NCBI RefSeq assembly: GCF_000009705.1
Contig: NC_003272.1
Coordinates: 3,630,001-3,662,000, forward strand
Origin: Nostoc sp. PCC 7120 = FACHB-418
Lineage (GTDB): Bacteria > Cyanobacteriota > Cyanobacteriia > Cyanobacteriales > Nostocaceae
Direction of reading: 5' to 3'
Length of the DNA: 32,000 nt
Made by a program: the position numbers and the translations under genes. How positions within the stretch are numbered: position 1 is the stretch's first letter; every line of letters starts with the position of its first letter. Below, in pieces: positions 2,823-21,256 of this stretch. The notes under the pieces were generated by a model. The model saw nothing but the letters and a program-made list of their open reading frames with translations, searched no databases and was not told where the DNA came from.

Positions 2823-4889
2823 ATGGGCAAGGTAGTCGGCATCGACTTGGGTACAACCAACTCAGTAGTCGCCGTGATGGAGGGTGGCAAGCCGGTGGTG
2901 ATTGCCAATGCAGAAGGAATGCGAACAACCCCCTCGGTCGTTGGCTTCAGCAAAGATGGTGAAAGGGTTGTTGGGCAAATGGCACGGCGACAAACAGTCC
3001 TCAATCCTCAAAATACATTTTTTGCCGTAAAACGCTATATCGGGCGCAGGTATAACGAACTTAGCCCAGAATCGAAGCGTGTACCTTATACAATTCGCAA
3101 AGATGAAGTTGGCAATATTAAAGTTGCCTGTCCTCGTCTCAATAAGGAATTTTCCGCCGAAGAGATTTCGGCAATGGTGCTGAAAAAGTTGGCAGATGAT
3201 GCCAGTGCTTATTTAGGGTCAGCAGTTACAGGGGCAGTAATTACAGTACCAGCTTATTTCAATGATTCCCAAAGACAAGCCACCCGCGATGCTGGCAGAA
3301 TTGCCGGTTTAGAAGTGTTGCGGATTCTCAACGAACCGACAGCAGCGTCTTTAGCTTATGGGTTAGACCGGGGTGATACGGAAACCATCTTAGTTTTTGA
3401 CTTGGGTGGCGGGACATTTGATGTATCGATTTTGGAAGTCGGGGATGGAGTATTTGAAGTCAAAGCCACCAGTGGCGATACCCAACTAGGTGGGAATGAC
3501 TTTGATAAGAAAATTGTCGATTGGTTGGCAGAGCAATTTTTAGAGACAGAAGGTGTAGACTTAAGACGCGATCGCCAAGCTTTGCAACGTTTGATGGAAG
3601 CGGCGGAAAAAGCTAAAATCGAACTCTCGGCTGTCAGCATCACTGATATTAACTTACCCTTCATCACTGCTACAGAAGACGGCCCCAAACACTTAGAAAC
3701 CAGGCTGACGCGTTCCCAGTTTGAAGGTTTATGTGTTGACTTATTAGGACGCGTCCGTAACCCCGTGAAACGGGCGCTAAAAGATGCCGGACTCAGACCT
3801 GATGATATTGAAGAAGTCGTACTAGTTGGCGGTTCCACAAGAATGCCAATGGTAAAACAACTGGTGCGGGACTTAATTGGCATTGAACCCAGCGAAAATG
3901 TCAACCCTGATGAAGTGGTGGCGATGGGTGCAGCCATTCAAGCGGGGATTCTGGCAGGAGAGTTCAAAGATGTGCTGCTGCTAGATGTTACACCCTTATC
4001 TTTGGGATTGGAAGCGATCGGTGGCGTGATGAAAAAACTCATCCCCCGCAATACCACCATCCCTGTCCGCCGTTCTGATATTTTCTCCACTTCCGAAAAT
4101 AACCAAAACTCCGTGGAAATTCACGTAGTCCAAGGTGAACGGGAAATGGCAGGTGATAACAAATCTCTAGGACGTTTCAAACTTTACGGCATTCCCCCTG
4201 CACCACGAGGTATTCCCCAAATCCAAGTAGCATTTGATATCGATGCCAACGGGATTTTACAGGTAACAGCTTTAGACAGAACCACTGGCAGAGAACAGAG
4301 TATCACCATTCAAGGTGCTTCTACCCTAAGTGAATCAGAAGTTAACCGGATGATTCAGGAAGCCCAAAAATATGCTGACGTTGACCGGGAACGCAAAGAG
4401 AGGGTAGAAAAACGTACCCGTTCTGAAGCCTTAATCCTCCAAGGAGAACGCCAGCTAAGGGAAGTTGCTTTAGAATTTGGGATGCAGTTTGCTCGTAATC
4501 GCCGCCAACGCATTGATAATATTAGCCGGGAATTAAAGGAAAGTCTCAAAGAAAATGACGATCGCGGGATTGACCAAGCCTACGCCGATCTGCAAGATGC
4601 TCTATATGAGCTAAATCGAGAAGTTCGTCAGTATTATGCTGAAGACGAAGACGACGATTTATTTGCCACGATCAAAGACATCTTTGTGGGCGATAAAGAC
4701 AAGGAACGCGACCTTCCCAGAGATAGCTATCGAGAACGGGATGCTTACAATAACAGAGATTATGGCAGAGACTATGGCAGAGATTACGGACGAGACAGTC
4801 GTCCTTCCTATGACAACAGCCGCCCTCCTCGTAAATCACCCCGCCCCAGCTATCAGGATAATTGGGACGATGATGATGATTGGCTATAG
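2823..4889 (+). CDS. dnaK: Hsp70 chaperone DnaK paralog with extended repeat-containing C-terminal tail
   Basis: 688-aa ORF. Contains [19 protein letters not shown] and [10 protein letters not shown] Hsp70 signatures. AGGAG-like SD upstream of ATG 2823. Tail carries RDYG x3 and ends DDDDDWL. Confidence 0.95.
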
Positions 4890-5011
4890 ATGAGGAATAG
4901 GGAGGAATCAATTCAAAATAGCCTATGGTATCGCGTAGCATCTCCTAGAGAAGGCTACGCCAACAAAATTAAGGAATTGATTCCCATCTCCTCTTCTGCC
5001 TGAATGCGGAT

Positions 5012-5046
5012 TTGGTAATTGATAATTGGTAATTGGTAATTAGTAA
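5012..5046. repeat. STRR-type heptamer tandem repeat (TTGGTAA x5 with variants)
   Basis: ttggtaa ttgataa ttggtaa ttggtaa ttagtaa, between dnaK and the DnaJ-like gene. Confidence 0.85.
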
Positions 5047-5082
5047 CAATTATCTAGAAACTAAAATTTAAAAGTTAAATAA

Positions 5083-6084
5083 ATGAATATGCAGAATTTG
5101 CAGAATTTTCGTGATTATTACGAGATTTTGGGAGTAACGAAAGATGCTACTAATGAAGATATTAAAAAGAATTATCGACGGTTAGCAAGACAGTATCACC
5201 CTGATCTCAATCCGGGGAATAAAGACGCAGAAGAAAAATTTAAAATCATCGGCGAAGCTTATGAAATGCTTTCCGATGCGACTAAACGCGCACAATATGA
5301 CCAATTTAGCCGTTATTGGAAACAGAAAGGCTTTCCTAAACAAACTCCTAAATCCAAGGCTTGGGGAGATAGTCGTAATGGAGAACGCAACGGTAATGAA
5401 AATGTAGATCCCAGCCAGTTTACCAATTTTGAAGATTTTCTGAATCAAGTTATCGGTGTTGGCAGTCGTAGAGATAGCAAAAATGGTGCAAGTACCAACA
5501 CGACAACCGATCCGTTTCGTTCGCCAAAAAGCCGAGTTGAATATACAGTTCCCAAAAATCCCTCTCGTCCAGCCCGTCGGGATATTGAAGCAAGATTGAC
5601 CTTACCCTTTGAAAAAGCTTATTCTGGGGGTAATGAACGTATTCGTTTAGAGGATGGGCGATCGCTAGAAGTAACAATGCCCCCAGGGATGGTAACAGGT
5701 CAAACCATCCGCCTGCGTAATCAAGGCATAAGCGGCGGCGACCTCTACTTAAAAATTACCGTCGAACCTCACCCACTATTTAAACTAGAAGGTACTAATA
5801 TATTCTGCCAAGTACCAGTCACTCCCAGCGAAGCCGTCTTAGGAGGACAGGTAGAAGCACCAACCCTAGACGGCCCCGTAAAAATGACCATTCCCCCAGG
5901 AGTTAGGTCTGGTCAAAGATTCCGCCTGGCCAATAAAGGCTATCCCAGCGATAACGGTAAACGTGGTGATCAATTAGTAGAAATTCAAATACTTACCCCG
6001 AAAACGATCAGTCAAGAAGAAAAAGAACTTTACGAAAAACTCCGGCAAATTGAAACATTTAAACCCCGCGCTGATTTAATTTAA
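5083..6084 (+). CDS. DnaJ-family co-chaperone (J domain plus DnaJ C-terminal domains, no Cys-rich zinc finger; CbpA-like)
   Basis: 333 aa. J domain DYYEILGV...[16 protein letters not shown]-terminal beta-domains ([11 protein letters not shown]..., RLANKGYP). No CxxCxGxG repeats seen. Lies immediately downstream of dnaK. Confidence 0.9.
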
Positions 6085-11905: not shown

Positions 11906-12391
11906 TGGGTCAATAGTAATTCTTCTTTGCTCCCCCTGCCCCCTCTGCTCTTCTTACTCCTCCTCCCAAATACACACCCCGACCTAGTTGTCGATATGGA
12001 AAACAACTAAGTTAATGAGAAAATATCTATTTTTCCTGAAATCAAATCATCAGAATATTTAATAGAAGAATATTCTTGCTTTTGAATAACATATCTAACT
12101 AGAGATACTCTTGATTAGAGTAGCCTATCTGTGCTAATAATAAATATTTGTGATCGTTTAATAAAATCACAAATTTAATAATCGTTTGTATTTTATTCAA
12201 GCCCAAAAATGCTGATAAACTCAAACTCCTCAGTAAAGTTGGCAGGGCGACAGTAATAAACAAATAATAATCAAGCCATCAACTTGTGTGATAGCTGTTG
12301 GATGCTGATTATCTTTGGATACAGACATCCAAACTCTTAGCCTGTGCTAAAATCAGCGTACCGGCACGACGCAGGTGATGGGAAAAATGCC

Positions 12392-14863
12392 ATGTTTGAA
12401 CGCTTCACAGAAAAAGCCATTAAGGTAATCATGCTGGCCCAAGAAGAGGCCCGCCGTTTAGGTCACAACTTCGTCGGAACCGAACAGATCCTCTTGGGTC
12501 TGATCGGGGAAGGTACGGGAGTTGCGGCCAAGGTGCTGAAATCGATGGGTGTCAATCTCAAAGATGCCCGCATTGAGGTAGAAAAAATCATAGGCCGGGG
12601 TTCAGGCTTTGTGGCCGTGGAAATTCCGTTTACGCCACGGGCAAAGCGGGTTCTGGAACTATCCCTAGAAGAAGCGCGCCAATTAGGCCATAACTACATT
12701 GGCACCGAGCATCTGCTGTTGGGCCTGATCCGGGAAGGGGAAGGTGTGGCAGCCAGGGTGCTAGAAAACCTGGGGGTGGATCTATCTAAAGTTAGAACTC
12801 AAGTCATCCGAATGCTGGGAGAAACAGCAGAGGTTTCGGCGACCGGGCAATCGGGACGCACCAAAACACCTACTTTGGATGAATTCGGATCGAACCTGAC
12901 CCAAATGGCAACTGATAACAAGCTTGATCCTGTGGTGGGACGCGCCAAGGAAATCGAGCGAGTGATTCAGATTTTGGGTCGCCGGACAAAAAATAACCCC
13001 GTATTGATTGGTGAACCTGGGGTTGGTAAAACCGCGATCGCCGAAGGTCTAGCATCACGCATTGCTAACAAAGATGTCCCCGACATCCTTGAAGATAAGC
13101 GTGTTGTCACTCTAGATATCGGTCTACTGGTCGCAGGCACCAAGTACCGGGGTGAATTTGAAGAACGCTTGAAGAAAATCATGGATGAGATTCGTCAAGC
13201 GGGTAATGTAATACTTGTAATAGACGAAGTACACACCCTCATCGGTGCAGGTGCTGCCGAAGGTGCGATTGATGCGGCAAATATCCTCAAGCCAGCCTTG
13301 GCAAGAGGTGAATTGCAATGTATCGGTGCGACAACCTTAGATGAGTACCGCAAGCACATCGAACGGGACGCAGCGCTAGAACGCCGCTTCCAGCCAGTGA
13401 TGGTCGGTGAACCCTCCGTCGATGAAACAATAGAAATTTTATATGGTTTGCGCGATCGCTACGAGCAACACCACAAGCTGAAAATCTCCGATGAAGCTTT
13501 AGTCGCGGCGGCGAAATTATCTGATCGTTATATTAGCGATCGCTATCTGCCAGACAAAGCCATCGACTTGGTTGACGAAGCTGGTTCGCGCGTGCGGTTG
13601 ATGAACTCTCAGCTGCCCCCCGCAGCCAAAGAGTTAGATAAAGAACTGCGCCAAATCTTAAAAGAAAAAGATGATGCAGTCCGTTCCCAAGACTTTGACA
13701 GAGCTGGGGAACTGCGCGATCGGGAAATGGAAATCAAAGCCGAAATCCGCGCGATCGCCCAAAGCAAGACCAATGCTTCTGGTACCGAAGGTCAAGAACC
13801 TGTAGTTACAGAAGAAGACATTGCTCACATCGTGGCTTCGTGGACAGGCGTTCCCGTCAACAAGCTCACCGAATCTGAATCCGAAAAGCTGCTGCACATG
13901 GAAGATACCTTGCACCAGCGCTTAATCGGACAAGAAGATGCGGTAAAAGCAGTTTCACGGGCAATTCGTCGCGCTCGTGTCGGTTTGAAAAATCCCAACC
14001 GACCCATTGCTAGCTTTGTCTTCTCTGGGCCGACTGGTGTTGGTAAAACCGAGTTGGCGAAATCCTTGGCTTCCTACTTCTTCGGTTCCGAAGAAGCAAT
14101 GATTCGCTTGGATATGTCCGAGTACATGGAACGCCACACCGTCAGCAAGTTGATTGGTTCACCTCCTGGTTATGTTGGTTATAACGAAGGTGGTCAATTA
14201 ACCGAAGCTGTGCGCCGTCGTCCTTACACAGTGGTGCTGTTCGACGAAATCGAAAAAGCCCACCCCGATGTCTTCAATATGCTGCTGCAAATTTTAGAAG
14301 ATGGTCGGTTAACAGATGCGAAAGGACGCACCGTAGACTTCAAGAACACCTTGCTGATTTTGACATCCAACATCGGTTCCAAGGTAATTGAAAAAGGTGG
14401 TGGTGGTATCGGCTTCGAGTTCTCCGAAGATCAAACCGAAACACAATACAACCGCATTCGCTCCTTGGTGAACGAAGAACTGAAGCAATACTTCCGTCCT
14501 GAGTTCCTCAACCGTCTAGACGAGATTATCGTCTTCCGTCAGTTGAGCAAGCTAGAAGTTACCGAAATTGCGGACATTATGCTCAAAGAAGTGTTTGGTC
14601 GCCTCACCGAAAAAGGTATCACTTTAGAAGTAAGCGATCGCTTCAAAGGACGACTCATCGAAGAAGGTTACAGTCCGAGCTACGGTGCAAGACCGTTACG
14701 TCGGGCAATTATGCGCTTGTTAGAAGATAGCCTAGCAGAAGAAATTCTGTCAGGTCGCATCAAAGATGGCGATGTCGCCCTCATTGATATTGATGAAAAC
14801 GGCAATGTGCAAGTTACTTCTCAACAACGCCGGGAATTATTACCCCAAGGTGTTGAGTCATAG
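12392..14863 (+). CDS. clpC: ATP-dependent Clp protease ATP-binding subunit ClpC
   Basis: The track ORF starts at GTG 12344, but the canonical N-terminus [12 protein letters not shown] begins at ATG 12392. Two Clp-N repeats, two AAA+ modules ([16 protein letters not shown]) and a UVR-like linker. Confidence 0.95.
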
Positions 14864-14903: not shown

Positions 14904-14941
14904 CGGTAGAGCAATTAACGTTCTACCGTTTTTCTTTTTTT
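14904..14941 (+). terminator. Rho-independent terminator after clpC
   Basis: cggtaga-N11-tctaccg perfect 7-bp stem followed by tttttcttttttt. Lies between the convergent 3' ends of clpC and the 14951-16087 gene. Confidence 0.8.
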
Positions 14942-14950
14942 GATCAGCCA

Positions 14951-16087
14951 CTATGACTCATATACATCCACTGATTTTGACTGCTTTAAACTATTTTGAG
15001 TTAGATATTTAGCTCTATCCTTTAGAATTTCTACTAATCCATAAATTTCGTCTAGATTTGAAATGGATTTTTTAGCTTCTTTACCATCCACATCAATAAT
15101 GCCGATATATTTTTTACTTGACTTAAACCAAAGTCGGCAAACAGTTTTGGATACCTTATTCTCCATGTTAATGCCAAAATAGTTTTTTGTAGCTCTAAAT
15201 TGAAGTTGGCTAATATCAATAACTTCTCGTAAGATAGCCTTAATAATTAAAAACCCTTCCGTTTCTTCTTCTGTTATAGAAATTTCATTCTCAGATGAGG
15301 AAGAATCTGCTTCTATGTCTACTTCGGTGTCTTGAATAGAAGTAGATTGTGCGCCTGAAGTTATAGTGTCAGGAAGATCAATAGCTGATTTTAATCTATC
15401 TGTGATTCTGTCATTAATAAATTCCTTGAGAGAACGCTTTGTAATTTCTGTAAATTTATTTGTGACTGATACAGTTAATTTTCCTGTATATACTTGGCTG
15501 GCGAAAAATTTAACAAATTCCGGTGACGGTTCAGTAAGCTGTTCTGCCATAAGGCGTTTAATCTCTTTTGTGTAAAGAAGGTTTTTGGCAAAATCTGCCA
15601 TTTGCTCAGGATTAAAGGCTATTTTAGAAAATCGTTTAAGCTCATTCACCATAGATTCATTAAAATCCATCATGTTGAACTCAAAGAATGGTTTCTCATC
15701 CATAACATTAGTTTTCTCTGTATCAGTGTAAAACCTATAGAGAATACCATTAGTTAAGATACCAAACTTAGCTTCTGTAGCATGAAAGTATCTATGTAAT
15801 TGTGAGCTATGTTTTGGATGTTCTAGACTCGCTCCACACCATTTACATTCAATAAGAATGATAGGAACACCATTCATATTAATTGCATAATCTACTTTTT
15901 CTCCTTTTAAACCAGGTACATCAGCCGTAAACTCAGGGCATACTTCTGTTGGATTAAAAACGTTATACCCTAGTGCATTAATAAAAGGCATTACAAAAGC
16001 GTTTTTGGTAGCTTCTTCAGTCAAGACTTGCTCTTTTAGTTTTGGAATTTGCTGAGAAACAGCTTTTATTTGATCAATAAAATCCAT
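14951..16087 (-). CDS. HsdR_N / COG4748-type PD-(D/E)XK nuclease-domain protein (solitary, no adjacent methylase or specificity gene)
   Basis: 378 aa. N-terminal region with D66...E80-C-K82 (VDYAI...ILIECKW) and FGILTNG, as in type I restriction HsdR N-terminal-like domains. C-terminal EGFLIIKAILRE...YFGI...CRLWF module. Strongly AT-rich compared with clpC. Confidence 0.65.
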   Translation of the reverse strand: MDFIDQIKAVSQQIPKLKEQVLTEEATKNAFVMPFINALGYNVFNPTEVCPEFTADVPGLKGEKVDYAINMNGVPIILIECKWCGASLEHPKHSSQLHRYFHATEAKFGILTNGILYRFYTDTEKTNVMDEKPFFEFNMMDFNESMVNELKRFSKIAFNPEQMADFAKNLLYTKEIKRLMAEQLTEPSPEFVKFFASQVYTGKLTVSVTNKFTEITKRSLKEFINDRITDRLKSAIDLPDTITSGAQSTSIQDTEVDIEADSSSSENEISITEEETEGFLIIKAILREVIDISQLQFRATKNYFGINMENKVSKTVCRLWFKSSKKYIGIIDVDGKEAKKSISNLDEIYGLVEILKDRAKYLTQNSLKQSKSVDVYES

Positions 16088-16361
16088 AGTTTTTAGTAGA
16101 TGAAACTAGTTAAAAGGCGAATGCAAGTAACCTATTTTTAATAGCTAAATAACTAAGTAAATTTGCATCCTAAATTACATCATCACCGTAATATTATCTC
16201 TGTGCCACCGAGTTATTACTGTTCTTACACGAAGGTTTTTCTGACAAAAATTTGGTAAAATTACTTACAGAAATAAAACTTATTATTATCCTGTTCAAGA
16301 GTATGAGCTTTTAGTAAAAAATTTTAAGTTGCCTAATCGCAATCTTAAGGACATAAAAACA

Positions 16362-16529
16362 ATGTTGAATTTAGACCTGATTCGGGACACTAAAGTTTAT
16401 CAAGAAGCATTTGAAGAAGGGAAACTACAGGCTAAGTTGAAAATAGTACCAATTTTGCTGGAATTAGGATTAAGTATTCAGCAAATAGCGGAAAGATTAA
16501 AAATAGATACAGATGTAGTCAGAGAATGA
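16362..16529 (+). CDS. Mini-protein resembling the C-terminal helical/HTH tail of Rpn/DUF4351-type proteins
   Basis: ATG at 16362 (the track uses TTG 16329). TKVYQEAFEEGKLQ parallels SPWYQEILREGEARG in the 6103-6972 protein. Followed by the HTH-like LGLSIQQIAERLKID. Confidence 0.4.
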   Translation: MLNLDLIRDTKVYQEAFEEGKLQAKLKIVPILLELGLSIQQIAERLKIDTDVVRE

Positions 16530-16551
16530 GCAAGGCGCTAGTATTTTTTAG

Positions 16552-16779
16552 ATGACTAATAACTGGGAATTTACAGAAGTATTGATTGATCTGATGTTAT
16601 CGCCTCCATACATTCTTGTATTACTATGCGACAGTGAGGGAAACTGTCAAATGTATGATCCGAAACAGGGTGATAAGGTTGTATTTTCTAGTAATAATTA
16701 TGAAGCTGCTAAGTTATGGTTACTAGAAGATGAGTATGAACAAGTTGAAGGTAGGCTATTAGTTACGGAATTATTTTAA
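16552..16779 (+). CDS. Hypothetical 75-aa protein, second gene of a small pair
   Basis: ATG 22 nt after the preceding stop, same strand. No recognisable motif. Confidence 0.4.
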   Translation: MTNNWEFTEVLIDLMLSPPYILVLLCDSEGNCQMYDPKQGDKVVFSSNNYEAAKLWLLEDEYEQVEGRLLVTELF

Positions 16780-16831
16780 CTGGAGCAATGGATTATGGTG
16801 TGCGATCGCTTTTAGGGTAGCTGACTGTAGA

Positions 16832-16915
16832 TATCGCTGTTAGTGGAGTAGTGCGATCGCACGAAAAATTTTGATACGCTACGATCAACACAAGTCGGCA
16901 ATTACTGTTAATTTA
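16832..16915 (+). repeat. 84-bp cassette-boundary repeat, copy A
   Basis: tatcgctgttagtggagtagtgcgatcgcacgaaaaattttgatacgctacgatcaacacaagtcggcaattactgttaattta. Ungapped alignment to copies B and C gives 5 and 8 mismatches by hand. Confidence 0.9.
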
Positions 16916-16955
16916 AAAAGTAGCAATAATTTCCAAAAATGAGGTCAGATAAATT

Positions 16956-17273
16956 ATGACTAATACAAAACCTGTTCGTCTTCGTCAACTAGGGAGAATA
17001 TTTCCAGAATTTACAATTCCACCGGAAGAATTAGCTAGACGGGAAGCTGAAAAAAATACTCGTGGACAAAAAGCGCGTGTTGTTTTTGATCAAGTTTTTC
17101 CACAATTAATAGATGAACATTACAACTGGTTTATTGTGATTGAACCAAACAGTGGTGATTATTTTATTGATACAGATGAAAATATGGCTGACAAAAAAGC
17201 ACGCCAAAAATATCCTACTGGTTGGCTTGTTACTTTCCGTCTCAATGAAACAGGTACTTGTGGACGGATATGA
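16956..17273 (+). CDS. Hypothetical 105-aa protein, translationally coupled upstream partner of the retropepsin-like gene
   Basis: ATG 16956 with GAGG upstream. The stop TGA overlaps the ATG of the next gene (ATGA at 17270-17273). Contains WFIVIEPNSGDYFIDTDENMADKKARQKYP. Confidence 0.55.
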   Translation: MTNTKPVRLRQLGRIFPEFTIPPEELARREAEKNTRGQKARVVFDQVFPQLIDEHYNWFIVIEPNSGDYFIDTDENMADKKARQKYPTGWLVTFRLNETGTCGRI

Positions 17274-17638
17274 TTTCAGGGAGGTTTGGTGAAATTGGGG
17301 AGCTAATTTTTGATATGGAGGTTATTTCCAGTGATGGAGATAGTTATCCTATTGAAGTTTTATTAGACACAGGATTTACATCTGGTTGGTTGGCACTTGA
17401 TATACAAGATGCTGAAAGTTTAGGATGGCCATTAATTCAACGCGATAGCATTATGCAAATGGCCAGAGGTGAAGCTTTCTTTAATATATATGAAGGTAAA
17501 GTGGTATTAGATGGACAGGAGTACATTATTTCTGTCTTAGCTGCTGATGGACTACCTGAGCCTCTTTTGGGGTTACAGTGGTTAAAAATGTTGCCTTTAT
17601 CTGTGAATTTTCTCGATGGAATATTAACATTGGGGTGA
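17270..17638 (+). CDS. Retropepsin-like (clan AA) single-domain aspartic protease homolog
   Basis: LLDTGFTSG catalytic-type D-T-G (D33 from ATG 17270) and a late LLGLQWL (hydrophobic-hydrophobic-Gly) motif. About 122 aa, compatible with a homodimeric retropepsin fold. The track start at TTG 17258 is less likely than the ATGA overlap. Confidence 0.65.
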   Translation: MISGRFGEIGELIFDMEVISSDGDSYPIEVLLDTGFTSGWLALDIQDAESLGWPLIQRDSIMQMARGEAFFNIYEGKVVLDGQEYIISVLAADGLPEPLLGLQWLKMLPLSVNFLDGILTLG

Positions 17639-17688
17639 AGATAGGTTAATCAGTTTTGAATAGAGTTTGTGTGTTAGTTAAGTATAGC

Positions 17689-17772
17689 TATCGCTGTTAG
17701 TGGAGTAGTGCGATCGCGCGCGACATTTTGATAAGCTACGATCAACACAAGTCGGCAATTACTGTTAATTTA
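17689..17772 (+). repeat. 84-bp cassette-boundary repeat, copy B
   Basis: tatcgctgttagtggagtagtgcgatcgcgcgcgacattttgataagctacgatcaacacaagtcggcaattactgttaattta. Its last base is the A of the ATG at 17772. Confidence 0.9.
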
Positions 17773-17990
17773 TGGAAACATCAAAATTTACTACTCAGAG
17801 AGATAACACACAACTAGAAACAATAGACATTGCTGTAAAACCTCAAAGCATAAACCGACGCGAGTTTATGAAATTGCCATTAGAAGAAAGGCGGCGCATA
17901 CTAGCAGAACAAGCCGAGCAAATGTTACTACATTACCAACAAGATAAAGAGTGGCAAGAATTAGAGACAGGAGATTTGCTTGATTACTAG
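17772..17990 (+). CDS. Putative antitoxin of the MazF-type toxin (family not recognised)
   Basis: 72-aa acidic ORF overlapping the toxin start by 11 nt. Contains KLPLEERRRILAEQAEQM. An internal ATG (M33) is an alternative start. Confidence 0.55.
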   Translation: METSKFTTQRDNTQLETIDIAVKPQSINRREFMKLPLEERRRILAEQAEQMLLHYQQDKEWQELETGDLLDY

Positions 17991-18342
17991 CTCTCCTACC
18001 GCTAGACGGGGCGATATTTGGCTTGCTAATTTTGACCCAACACTAGGAGCAGAAATCAAAAAAATCAGACCTGCTGTGGTAGTAAGTTCTGATGGTGTTG
18101 GTAAATTGCCAATTAAATTAATTGCGCCTATCACAGATTGGAAAGAATACTATGCTGGTAATATATGGCACGTCAAACTTGAACCAGACACCAGTAATCA
18201 TTTAACCAAAACTTCTGCTGTTGATGTTTTACAATTGCGCGGTATGGATGTGCAAAGATTCATCCGTAAAATAGGGGTTTGTTCGCCTGAAGTCATGGAA
18301 GATATTGCTATGGCTATTGCTGCGATAGTCGAGTATTTCTAA
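17980..18342 (+). CDS. Type II toxin-antitoxin system PemK/MazF-family endoribonuclease toxin
   Basis: 120 aa. RGDIWLANFDPTLGAEIKKIRPAVVVSSD is the classic MazF/PemK N-terminal signature. TTG start. Confidence 0.85.
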   Translation: MITSSPTARRGDIWLANFDPTLGAEIKKIRPAVVVSSDGVGKLPIKLIAPITDWKEYYAGNIWHVKLEPDTSNHLTKTSAVDVLQLRGMDVQRFIRKIGVCSPEVMEDIAMAIAAIVEYF

Positions 18343-18400
18343 TAAATCATTTGATAATCACACAAGCACTAAATTGGCAGCAGTATAAACCCATTGTAGG

Positions 18401-18484
18401 TATCGTTGTTAGTGGGGTAGTGCGATCGCACGCAACATTTTGATAAGCTACGATAAGCACAAGTCGGCGATTACTGTTAATTTA
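18401..18484 (+). repeat. 84-bp cassette-boundary repeat, copy C
   Basis: tatcgttgttagtggggtagtgcgatcgcacgcaacattttgataagctacgataagcacaagtcggcgattactgttaattta. No ORF follows it. Confidence 0.9.
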
Positions 18485-18519
18485 TTGATATTCTCAAACC
18501 TGATGCTATTGCTTTAAGT

Positions 18520-18602: not shown

Positions 18603-19358
18603 TTATTCCTCCACAGGTGTGAGTTTTACAGGATACAATGGCTCAGATCCGTTTAACTGCCAAATTCTAAATACCAATGCAGCCGCTACAGTTAGCCATA
18701 TACAAGAAAAAGATAAAATCATTCCCGCTACATGGTTAGTTTGCCAATAAATTGCTGTCACAACTAAAGCAGATAACCAGGGGCCTAAAATTACTACAGG
18801 AACAGCCGCGCCTAGTCTTCGTTCTACAGTAAAAATTGTATTCCAAGTATCCCCTAAAGCCAGATGTACTACAAACATAATGAAGGGTAGTACTAAAAAT
18901 TGATGATTCATTTGCTGCCAAACTAACACAGAAGAAATTACTCGCAAAACTGCAATGATCATCCAGACTATGGGAAATGCTAAAGGTGGAGGAGACCATT
19001 TTGGTCTGATTACTTGGTCATAAGTCTGACGAGAACGGGTATTATCTAGAAGAGAGAAAATTCGGGAACGGATACTTAATAGAGTAAAAAATAATGCTGT
19101 CAATAAAGTGCTAAACCAATTGGGAAAAGAAGAATTGCTATCTATCAATATGATTAATTTTTCCATTCCTAACAACGCAAGAATCATGACTGCTATTTGT
19201 AAGATAGTCCCTAGTTTATAAACTAAAACAGCTTTGATATCTAGTTCTTGTGTAGTGGTTATTGATGTATTTAGCGATTGTTGTTGATTACCAGTTTTTA
19301 CACCCATTACTGTGTTGACAAACTGTTCCAGTATTCCACTATTTTTGGACTTATTCAT
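18603..19358 (-). CDS. TspO/MBR-like tryptophan-rich membrane protein with extra N-terminal membrane region
   Basis: The C-terminal ~150 aa carry RPKWSPPPLAFPIVWMII, GDTWNTIF and multiple Trp-containing TM helices. ATG at 19358 (MNKSKNSG) is preferred over the track start at 19394. Confidence 0.55.
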   Translation of the reverse strand: MNKSKNSGILEQFVNTVMGVKTGNQQQSLNTSITTTQELDIKAVLVYKLGTILQIAVMILALLGMEKLIILIDSNSSFPNWFSTLLTALFFTLLSIRSRIFSLLDNTRSRQTYDQVIRPKWSPPPLAFPIVWMIIAVLRVISSVLVWQQMNHQFLVLPFIMFVVHLALGDTWNTIFTVERRLGAAVPVVILGPWLSALVVTAIYWQTNHVAGMILSFSCIWLTVAAALVFRIWQLNGSEPLYPVKLTPVEE

Positions 19359-19894
19359 AATTGAGAAATTGCAGTAGCTTTTAACTATTAACAATGATTT
19401 ATTATATAATAATGTGATTTCTAAAAATGATATTTATTACTAATTTATAAGATTCAATTAGGTTTCAAATTGAGTAGTTGATTAACTTTGTGTAATTTAT
19501 ATATTTTAACATCTAGCTTAAGGCTGATATAAATTAATAAAATCCATCTTCATATAAATTAATAAATATCTTTCAAGGTTTTTGTCAAAAAAATATGACT
19601 TTAATTTGGGTAATCTTCAACCTCAATATTTGATTCTGGTGGAAAAATTTGACTAGCTTTAATAAACCCCACTTGGTTATAGGTGTTTGCAAGGCTTGAT
19701 TAGTAAGAACTTCTGCAAAAATCACCCAAAATCCTTGTAGATTAAAGCTGAAATACCAGTAATTCTATCGGGTAAGTAGGCTTATAAATTCCTATGTTGA
19801 AAGTACTATTGACTCCTTAAAAGGATGTGGTTACTGTTATGAGTAGTCCTTGTAAAAGGCTATTTGTACATCAAAGATTCACGAGGTATTTCCT

Positions 19895-20458: not shown

Positions 20459-21256
20459 ATGAAACATTTAAAATCCCGTTCCCAAGACTTGCGGAGCTTG
20501 TTTGAGAACAATATCACAATTGAATATGTAGCTGAAGCCTTGAAAGCTGTACCAGCAGAGGCGGAAGTAGTAGAGGTGTTGGGGTGGATGCGATCGCAAG
20601 ATTTTGATGTTGTTGGGGTGGAAACGGGTGATACAATAACTGGCTATATTGAACGCGCTAGTTTAGTGCAGGTTAAATCTGGTAAGTGCGGTGACTATCA
20701 GCGAGTGTTTCATCCTAAGGAACTGATTGCGATTTCTACGCCACTGATGAAGTTACTACCCATCTTGCAACAAAATCCGCGTTTGTTTGTTCTCGACTGC
20801 AATCAGGTGAGTGGGATTATTACCTGTGGTGACTTGCAGAAAGCGCCTGTGAGAATGTTGCTCTTTGGTTTAGTTACTTTGCTGGAGATGAATCTGTTGA
20901 GGTTGGTAAGGCTTTACTATCCCCAAGACGCTTGGCAGAAAGTTCTCAAGTCTGATCGCCTAGAAGTTGCGCGCAGGTTATGGCGTGAGAGTCAAGAAAG
21001 AAACGAAGCCACAGATTTACTAGATTACCTGCAATTTTGTGACAAGCGAGAGTTAGTCTTACATCAACCAGAACTGCTGGAACAACTAGAACTAAAATCA
21101 AAACGCGCTGGTGAACGGTTTTTAAAATCTGCTGAACAATTACGCAACCGATTAGCCCACGCCCAAAGTTTAGTTAGTGGTTCTTCTTGGAATGATTTAA
21201 TTTCTTTAGCAGAAGCGATGGAAAAACTCCTAATTCGCTGTGAAGAAATAGAGTGA
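20459..21256 (+). CDS. Predicted CBS-pair domain fused to a C-terminal HEPN-like (Rx4H) helical domain
   Basis: N-terminal ~130 aa have two CBS-like units (DFDVVGVETGDTITGYIERASL; LFVLDCNQVSGIITCGDLQKAPVR). The C-terminal helical half carries R229-N-R-L-A-H234, matching the HEPN Rx4-6H motif with a polar residue after R. Confidence 0.5.
   Translation: MKHLKSRSQDLRSLFENNITIEYVAEALKAVPAEAEVVEVLGWMRSQDFDVVGVETGDTITGYIERASLVQVKSGKCGDYQRVFHPKELIAISTPLMKLLPILQQNPRLFVLDCNQVSGIITCGDLQKAPVRMLLFGLVTLLEMNLLRLVRLYYPQDAWQKVLKSDRLEVARRLWRESQERNEATDLLDYLQFCDKRELVLHQPELLEQLELKSKRAGERFLKSAEQLRNRLAHAQSLVSGSSWNDLISLAEAMEKLLIRCEEIE

Follow-up and report, generated by a model that had tools for sequence, protein, structure and literature searches.

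Single-domain retropepsin-like proteases of prokaryotes have been known from genome sequences for about 20 years, and most of them have no assigned role. Of the 'predicted aspartyl protease' family COG5550, a survey from 2009 says that 'little is known' (PMC2642776). The APRc protease of Rickettsia conorii represents the soluble domain of a protein that is embedded in the membrane (PMC4140852), the retropepsin-like Rlo enzymes of Pseudomonas aeruginosa are secreted (PMC12239564), and RimB acts in the RimABK ribosome-modification operon (PMC11957791). Here we describe a protease of this kind in a stretch of 32,000 nucleotides (nt) from Nostoc sp. PCC 7120 = FACHB-418 (contig NC_003272.1, positions 3,630,001 to 3,662,000), called the window below. 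It is encoded by the second of two overlapping genes at positions 16956-17638 of the window, the first of which, orf105, specifies a small protein of 105 amino acids (aa). The pair is spread across hundreds of cyanobacteria and is also carried on cyanobacterial plasmids. Our preferred reading, on which belief and doubt are about evenly balanced, is that the two genes form a self-contained, horizontally mobile module of the toxin-antitoxin (TA), plasmid-addiction or conflict kind, in which the protease would be the effector and orf105 its neutraliser.

The elements of the module are as follows.

16941-16944, + strand: GAGG, a Shine-Dalgarno (SD)-like site read from the sequence, 11 nt 5' of the orf105 ATG
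16956-17273, + strand: orf105, 105 aa, 12-kDa protein, ending ...CGG ATA TGA
17262-17268, + strand: GGACGGA, a purine-rich SD-like run within the 3' end of orf105, one base before the protease ATG
17270-17273, + strand: ATGA, overlap of the orf105 stop with the protease start
17270-17638, + strand: protease gene, 122 aa, ATG at 17270
17366-17374, + strand: catalytic codons of D33-T34-G35 (D33 at 17366-17368)
17564-17584, + strand: codons of LLGLQWL (residues 99-105), which is the second signature of retropepsins ('ILG' motif)

A preliminary description of this DNA, made from its letters only, had noted a 105-aa open reading frame (ORF) that ends in an ATGA overlap with a gene for about 122 aa, and the coordinates are as it claimed. 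The protease is read in the -1 frame relative to orf105, and purine-rich SD-like runs are also found 4-9 nt upstream of the protease ATG in homologues. The two genes have 435 (orf105) and 297 (protease) homologue clusters of constant length. Ratios of nonsynonymous to synonymous substitution (dN/dS) of 0.16-0.27 for orf105 and 0.10-0.33 for the protease indicate purifying selection on both, and both are judged to be real genes. In the existing NCBI annotation the downstream gene is called 'aspartyl protease' and the upstream gene 'hypothetical protein'. The window is rich in the HIP1 motif GCGATCGC, its closest homologues are from Nostoc, Anabaena and Aliinostoc, and an Rfam scan of the whole window gave no match.

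In the protease, the motif LLDTGF occupies residues 31-36 and LLGLQWL residues 99-105. Both had been taken in the preliminary description as hallmarks of a dimer-forming clan AA protease, and both are conserved in 42 homologues: no change is seen at D33, T34, F36 or L100-L105, and at least 90% of them keep G35. The NCBIfam model TIGR03698 (clan_AA_DTGF) aligns with the protein from end to end (model positions 7-105 of 107, E = 3e-8). Since the score of 33.9 bits is under the curated cut-off of 57.35, the protease is regarded as a divergent relative or branch of TIGR03698 and not as a member by the curated rule. Pfam Asp_protease_2 matches weakly, and a sequence search against the PDB returned nothing for the protease or orf105. 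A structure was modelled with AlphaFold2 (predicted local distance difference test, pLDDT, 73; predicted template modelling score, pTM, 0.67). The closest PDB fold to this model is APRc of R. conorii (5c9f; E = 1e-5, template modelling score, TM, 0.72 over 127 columns), and the next neighbours are Ddi1 and the proteases of xenotropic murine leukaemia virus-related virus (XMRV), human immunodeficiency virus (HIV) and equine infectious anaemia virus (EIAV). The retropepsin fold on which the earlier suggestion depended is thus predicted. The isoelectric point (pI) of the protease is 4.05, and no signal peptide or membrane segment is evident in its sequence. We conclude that the downstream product, by its motifs and predicted fold, is a cytoplasmic single-domain clan AA retropepsin-like aspartic protease. 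A single-domain retropepsin needs to form a homodimer to build the active site, which is composed of D33 and D33' in this numbering.

The partner protein is less easily placed. orf105 has no Pfam or NCBIfam match, and its model (pLDDT 80) consists of a disordered N-terminus, a helix at residues 23-51, a beta-beta-alpha-beta unit at 59-95 and a disordered tail. Residues 1-20 are strongly basic (pI 11.7; 7.9 for the whole protein). Across 58 diverse homologues three segments are conserved, namely an N-terminal R-x-R-[ILV]-x-P motif, the core YNWFIxIEPxSGDYFID and the tail [FR]LNETGxCGx[IL]. Conservation of the tail may come in part from the SD site of the protease embedded there and would then not be purely a protein-level signal. 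F16-P17 is invariant in close homologues, and the wider family reads RILPQ, RILQA, RISPE or RILKE, keeping only R14 and the next hydrophobic residue; F16-P17 as a universal cleavage site of the retroviral type is therefore weakened. Only 206 relatives of orf105 came out of a profile search through 1.84 billion representative proteins. Distant relatives show sub-threshold matches to DUF5678 (PF18929; 12-19 bits, E = 1e-3 to 0.15), for which the Pfam gathering score is 23.2 bits and to which orf105 itself has no match. Among viral structures, the orf105 model comes closest to DUF5678 proteins of Pandoravirus (probability 0.97-1.0), which superimpose with a root-mean-square deviation of 2.2-2.7 Å over about 65 residues at E values of 0.014-0.19, which are not significant. 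The orf105 core is thus DUF5678-like in the model, by matches below significance. This link brings no mechanism with it, since no function is assigned to DUF5678.

Pairing of the two genes was followed from both sides. The orf105 search gave 47 genome loci, all from cyanobacteria, and in 30 of the 43 informative ones the protease lies directly downstream, with the junction ATATGAT every time. Starting from the protease, an orf105 homologue is found at exactly -4 nt upstream in 76 of 80 metagenome loci (41-78% identity). The remaining loci include two with a frameshifted orf105 and one truncated by the contig end; the only protease loci without orf105 are L129 and L131, which are identical in sequence and in which the protease is reduced to a pseudogene fragment of 59 aa. 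Both genes are present on all ten plasmid copies inspected, and the ATGA overlap is kept in every intact pair examined. Co-localisation of the homologues in other genomes, on which the proposal of a two-gene cassette had been made to depend, is therefore almost invariable, down to the same 4-nt overlap.

This layout is repeated in a paralogous unit, in which a 90-aa protein precedes a 121-aa protease with the same 4-nt overlap. It also occurs in loci L004 and L019, and two copies are placed as follows.

4001-4635 of locus L049 (Anabaena variabilis ATCC 29413): paralogous 90-aa + 121-aa module
4584-5222 of locus L002: paralogous 90-aa + 121-aa module, protease frameshifted

The 90-aa protein has 549 clusters, including those of A. 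variabilis ATCC 29413 and Nostoc PCC 7524. With 105.1 bits, the 121-aa protease of A. variabilis is a true member of TIGR03698, and it shares 32% identity with the window protease. The two small proteins are themselves related: orf105 and the 90-aa protein align in hhalign with E = 1.5e-4, and bridging sequences are matched by the profile hidden Markov models (HMMs) of both at E = 1e-7 to 1e-14. Several contigs of remote homologues are too short to inform on context; in the three remote orf105 relatives with sufficient context, a protein of 118-128 aa comes next and carries VVDTGF, LLDSGF or IVDTGF. Because the paralogous unit and the remote relatives share the layout, the pairing holds at the superfamily level and is no local accident. 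We conclude from these gene neighbourhoods that the pair is an obligate and genuine unit, and that the association is not absolute for the small protein. Two remote loci may be added as observations. At L148 (2501-3842), two small-protein/protease pairs stand in tandem on a non-cyanobacterial-looking contig with multihaem cytochrome neighbours. At L144 (30-781), a remote pair lies directly 3' of two overlapping small genes that, by eye, resemble a TA pair of the BrnT/BrnA type.

The two genes are not lost equally. An intact orf105 without an intact protease is found in 9 of 39 loci, and N-terminal remnants of the protease are seen beside the orphan orf105 in L019, L025, L040 and L021. The converse, an intact protease lacking an intact orf105, is seen in 2 of 77 loci, in both of which orf105 is merely frameshifted. 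The contrast of 9/39 against 2/77 gives p = 9e-4 in Fisher's test, and looser counts of orphans (13/43 against 4/79) give p = 2e-4, values that are indicative only because there is some redundancy among the loci, which were drawn from two different collections. The asymmetry fits a harmless upstream neutraliser and a harmful protease, and it counts against orf105 as the toxin.

The surroundings of the pair are those of a mobile unit. No conserved synteny is found around it, since clustering of the 362 flanking ORFs at 60% identity gives 228 groups. Pfam searches with 72 distinct small neighbours found PIN three times, HicB, DUF433 and DUF5615 twice each, and MazF and UPF0175; further matches are XisI (twice), DUF6887/6888, DUF29, an IS630 transposase, HNH, HSDR_N and a restriction endonuclease domain. 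Housekeeping genes of the ordinary kind are also among these 72. Tandem or multiple copies of the pair are present in L022, L041 and L148. Homologues of the protease were found in 22 cyanobacterial plasmid records and none in a phage genome collection, and at least four plasmids of Tolypothrix PCC 7601 carry copies. Partition genes (ParA/ParB) adjoin the pair in 6 of the 10 plasmid loci that were inspected. Five of these par-adjacent pairs, located on p057_I and on MOBP plasmids of 34-41 kb, are oriented divergently to parA, and one is just upstream of parA-parB; a tyrosine recombinase is usually within 2-3 kb. The spot beside the par region is the classical position of post-segregational killing systems, for example parDE beside parCBA on RK2. 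Taken together, the pair appears to behave as a selfish, horizontally mobile two-gene cassette. The plasmids of loci L133-L136 and L139 belong to Tolypothrix, Nostoc sphaeroides, Nostoc commune and Nostoc sp. C057. A conserved block in the backbone of the 34-41 kb MOBP plasmids consists of a tyrosine recombinase, a hypothetical protein of about 140 aa, ParA, and the divergent small protein with the aspartyl protease, and on two plasmids a gene for a patatin-like phospholipase is near this block.

On the chromosome, the module sits in a variable slot (~14940-18513) that extends from the 3' end of clpC to tspO and is compared here across the window and loci L002, L008, L013, L021 and L049. The borders of the slot, the repeats within it and the neighbouring mazEF cassette (17772-18342), which is context only and outside the module, are as follows.

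12344-14863: clpC, left border of the variable slot
16818-16915, + strand: direct repeat copy 1, 40 nt upstream of orf105
17675-17772, + strand: direct repeat copy 2, lying between protease gene and mazE, with its final bases abutting the mazE ATG
17772-17990, + strand: mazE, neighbouring cassette
17980-18342, + strand: mazF, neighbouring cassette
18387-18484, + strand: direct repeat copy 3, downstream of mazF
18603-19394, - strand: tspO, right border of the variable slot

Gene content of the slot differs in every related strain compared, being drawn from an HSDR_N protein, an ORF for an Rpn fragment, a 75-aa ORF, mazEF and both types of small-protein/protease pair. The window has orf105-protease and mazEF, L013 has orf105-protease alone, and L008 and L021 have mazEF followed by orf105-protease. 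In L002, orf105 stands with the protease cleanly deleted, together with a decaying 90-aa pair, and the slot of A. variabilis has the 90-aa + 121-aa pair only. The bona fide mazEF-type module reported next to the pair is indeed there in the same orientation, with a true MazF (PemK_toxin, E = 6.9e-25) and a MazE-like gene before it. The 84-bp repeats said to bound the pair are also real and slightly longer: there are three direct copies of 84-98 nt, 86-90% identical to copy 1, where 0 are expected by chance. Within the 98-nt unit two parts can be told apart: A, at about 1-44, closes with HIP1 GCGATCGC, and B, some 47 nt long, is at about 52-98. In A. variabilis 219 bp lie between A and B and hold a 66-aa ORF, the C-terminus of which (FFDKLRSTQVSNYC before the stop) is encoded by B. 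The A/B units of the window therefore look like internally deleted copies, or empty sites, of this small gene. Repeat parts are found elsewhere at these positions.

3552-3595 and 3815-3861 of locus L049: repeat parts
3221-3266, 3883-3926 and 4370-4467 of locus L021: repeat parts

The A/B units thus appear to mark borders where cassettes differ between strains. Integron attC sites and hairpins of miniature inverted-repeat transposable elements (MITEs) were considered for the repeats and rejected, as neither strand shows an excess of folding (z from -0.4 to +1.2). An obvious sigma-70 promoter was likewise rejected: a consensus scan found no site inside them, and the overall count is at chance level.

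Other genes in and around the slot were noted. The 75-aa ORF (beginning MTNNWEFTEVLIDLMLSPPYILVLLCDSEGNCQMYDP; 16552-16779, + strand) has no family match and recurs just 5' of orf105 in L002, L004, L013 and others, and also near distant pairs. A 378-aa protein (14951-16087, - strand) contains the HSDR_N N-terminal domain of type I restriction HsdR (E = 5e-17) and no other domain that could be recognised. A 66-aa ORF at 16329-16529 (+ strand) matches the C-terminal end of the Rpn-family recombination-promoting nuclease/transposase (E = 2e-5), and it is probably a gene fragment because only that end of the model is matched. A 265-aa protein (20459-21256, + strand), which is kept beside tspO in A. 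variabilis, has a weak HEPN_Swt1 match (E = 0.006).

How such a module might work can be outlined, and it is here that we infer binding, inhibition, toxicity and trigger alike. Through translational coupling by the internal SD site and the ATGA overlap, orf105 would be translated first and in stoichiometric excess. It would then bind the acidic protease and hold it inactive, either by placing one of its conserved tails, as a pseudo-substrate, in the substrate cleft or flap, or by blocking dimerisation. When synthesis of the pair stops, as upon plasmid loss, stress or phage takeover, labile orf105 would be lost, perhaps because the protease itself slowly cleaves it. Once free, the dimeric protease could cut one or more essential host proteins, and growth arrest would follow. 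The preliminary description had already read size, overlap and context as those of a TA or defence-type two-gene cassette. The side of this that concerns context held up in every genomic check that could be run, with the mobile surroundings rich in TA and defence genes, the plasmid par regions and the orphan asymmetry in its favour; a DNA-binding domain of the antitoxin and the usual charge pattern did not appear. Since no DNA-binding domain is recognisable in orf105 and the protease is acidic, the alternative named there, in which the partner is a dedicated substrate or inhibitor of the protease, is retained.

Several points weigh against a toxic protease held in check by orf105. Different from type II TA systems, orf105 has no recognisable DNA-binding domain of the ribbon-helix-helix (RHH), helix-turn-helix (HTH), AbrB or Phd/YefM kind, and the charges are reversed (protease pI 4.05 against orf105 pI 7.9); typical TA toxins are not acidic, unlike the window protease. 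Retropepsins commonly favour acidic pH, which is awkward for a toxin in the cytosol. The orf105 model has no significant fold neighbour in the PDB, and neither protein has a match in PADLOC or PHROGs. Members of the wider small-protein family stand without a protease in L048 and L052. In the first protease of the L148 tandem, DLG replaces the catalytic DTG, and this copy may be inactive. Adjacency to parA would fit another role in plasmid maintenance equally well. Contact between the two proteins is hinted at weakly by covariation: mutual information over 83 unique pairs places several of the top couplings between the orf105 strand 90-94 and protease residues 55-62, which make up the first strand of the presumed flap hairpin, a suggestive result from an effective number of sequences (Neff) of about 33 that is confounded by phylogeny.

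Other explanations of the pair can be set against the same evidence. It is unlikely, if still to be taken seriously, that orf105 is a precursor matured by the protease into, for example, a plasmid-maintenance or regulatory factor, with nothing toxic in the system. The cut could fall, for instance, within the disordered N-terminal R-x-R-[ILV]-x-P segment or at the tail of the C-terminus. Retropepsins classically process a polypeptide encoded just upstream, and strict coupling and co-inheritance would suit such a pair, as would two conserved linear motifs in predicted disordered segments, where proteases cut, and the F16-P17 scissile pair of the retroviral type that is invariant in close homologues. 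However, F-P is not kept in the wider family, and intact orf105 persists in nine loci without the protease needed for maturing it. Selfish-cassette behaviour and TA-rich surroundings are also unexpected for a simple maturation pair. The same nine loci bear on an exchange of roles, in which orf105 would be the toxin and the protease an enzymatic antitoxin degrading it. Enzymatic antitoxins are known in other TA types, and the protease could in principle cut the disordered tails of orf105. Yet orf105 is found intact alone and the protease essentially never, the opposite of what this arrangement predicts, and orf105 occupies the upstream position usual for antitoxins, so that we regard the exchange as very improbable.

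Two further possibilities were weighed. The enzyme could be a regulated housekeeping or stress protease, for which orf105 would be a specificity or activating adaptor that brings particular substrates to it, or a nucleic-acid tether by its basic N-terminus, and no killing would take place. The roles of RimB (PMC11957791), Rlo (PMC12239564) and APRc (PMC4140852) are physiological and not toxic, and purifying selection on both genes is strong, which is in accordance with this idea. A patchy, multi-copy and plasmid-borne distribution of presence and absence without synteny argues against it, as does the frequent decay of the protease while the supposed adaptor stays intact, and we consider it distinctly improbable. 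The -1 frame of a retropepsin-like enzyme also recalls Gag-Pro, where frameshifting near the end of orf105 would give an autoprocessing orf105-protease fusion. This is scarcely credible here: a TGA at 17246-17248 closes the protease frame 7 codons before its ATG, no slippery heptamer lies between that TGA and the ATG, and the conserved ATG with its SD-like purine run fits ordinary termination-reinitiation. Moreover, no fusion protein exists among hundreds of homologues, and neither a reverse transcriptase nor an integrase is linked to the pair.

A wider proposal is made tentatively, with somewhat more doubt than belief: orf105/protease, the 90-aa + TIGR03698 pairs and the non-cyanobacterial pairs may be the first TA or addiction family with a retropepsin-like toxin and a DUF5678-like neutraliser. 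If this is true, both DUF5678 and the widespread, so far unexplained clan AA proteases with a single domain in prokaryotes (COG5550/TIGR03698) gain a function, and enzymes like HIV protease serve in prokaryotic genetic conflict. If the protease is toxic, aspartic proteolysis would be a new biochemical class of TA or addiction effector, and the pair would yield a retropepsin inhibitor, or pseudo-substrate, that is a natural protein, as well as a stabilisation cassette for the engineering of cyanobacterial plasmids. Even a harmless protease would leave a compact model system, a retropepsin together with its dedicated partner. One large branch of the prokaryotic retropepsin-like proteases is, on the present data, no free-standing enzyme but the downstream half of an obligate and mobile unit with coupled translation, located in TA islands of cyanobacteria and in par regions of their plasmids, and an orphan enzyme family is turned into a directly testable hypothesis.

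Among described proteins, those of TIGR03698/COG5550 resemble the window protease in their length of about 120 aa, the DTGF motif, the second hydrophobic-hydrophobic-Gly motif and the predicted retropepsin fold. The window protease differs in scoring under the cut-off of the family, to which no function is assigned and for which the literature searched mentions no partner gene. With APRc (5c9f) it shares the retropepsin fold, predicted here. None of APRc, RimB and Rlo is reported with an overlapping small upstream partner, in a mobile cassette or at a plasmid par location. Retropepsin proteins of about 100 aa are listed as accessory genes of type III CRISPR-Cas in Sulfolobales, for example Saci_1895 (PMC3973734). 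Likened by description only, they are single-domain aspartic proteases in a defence neighbourhood, as is the window protease; they differ in being archaeal and cas-linked, and no partner protein is described for them. The TA literature searched makes no mention of retropepsins as toxins, and no description of the pair was found in the literature on retropepsins and TA, DUF5678, COG5550 or TIGR03698.

The closest overall likeness is to type II TA systems. It consists of two small, co-oriented and overlapping genes, with ATGA kept in intact pairs, a patchy multi-copy spread, TA-rich islands and surroundings of plasmid partition and resolution, and an upstream gene that survives as an orphan while the downstream gene does not. 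An aspartic protease lies outside the known toxin superfamilies, and to our knowledge such proteases are not an established class of TA toxin. Because neither a DNA-binding antitoxin domain nor a known toxin superfamily could be recognised, the module is not filed as a member of type II. Nevertheless, it probably works like a type II TA system.

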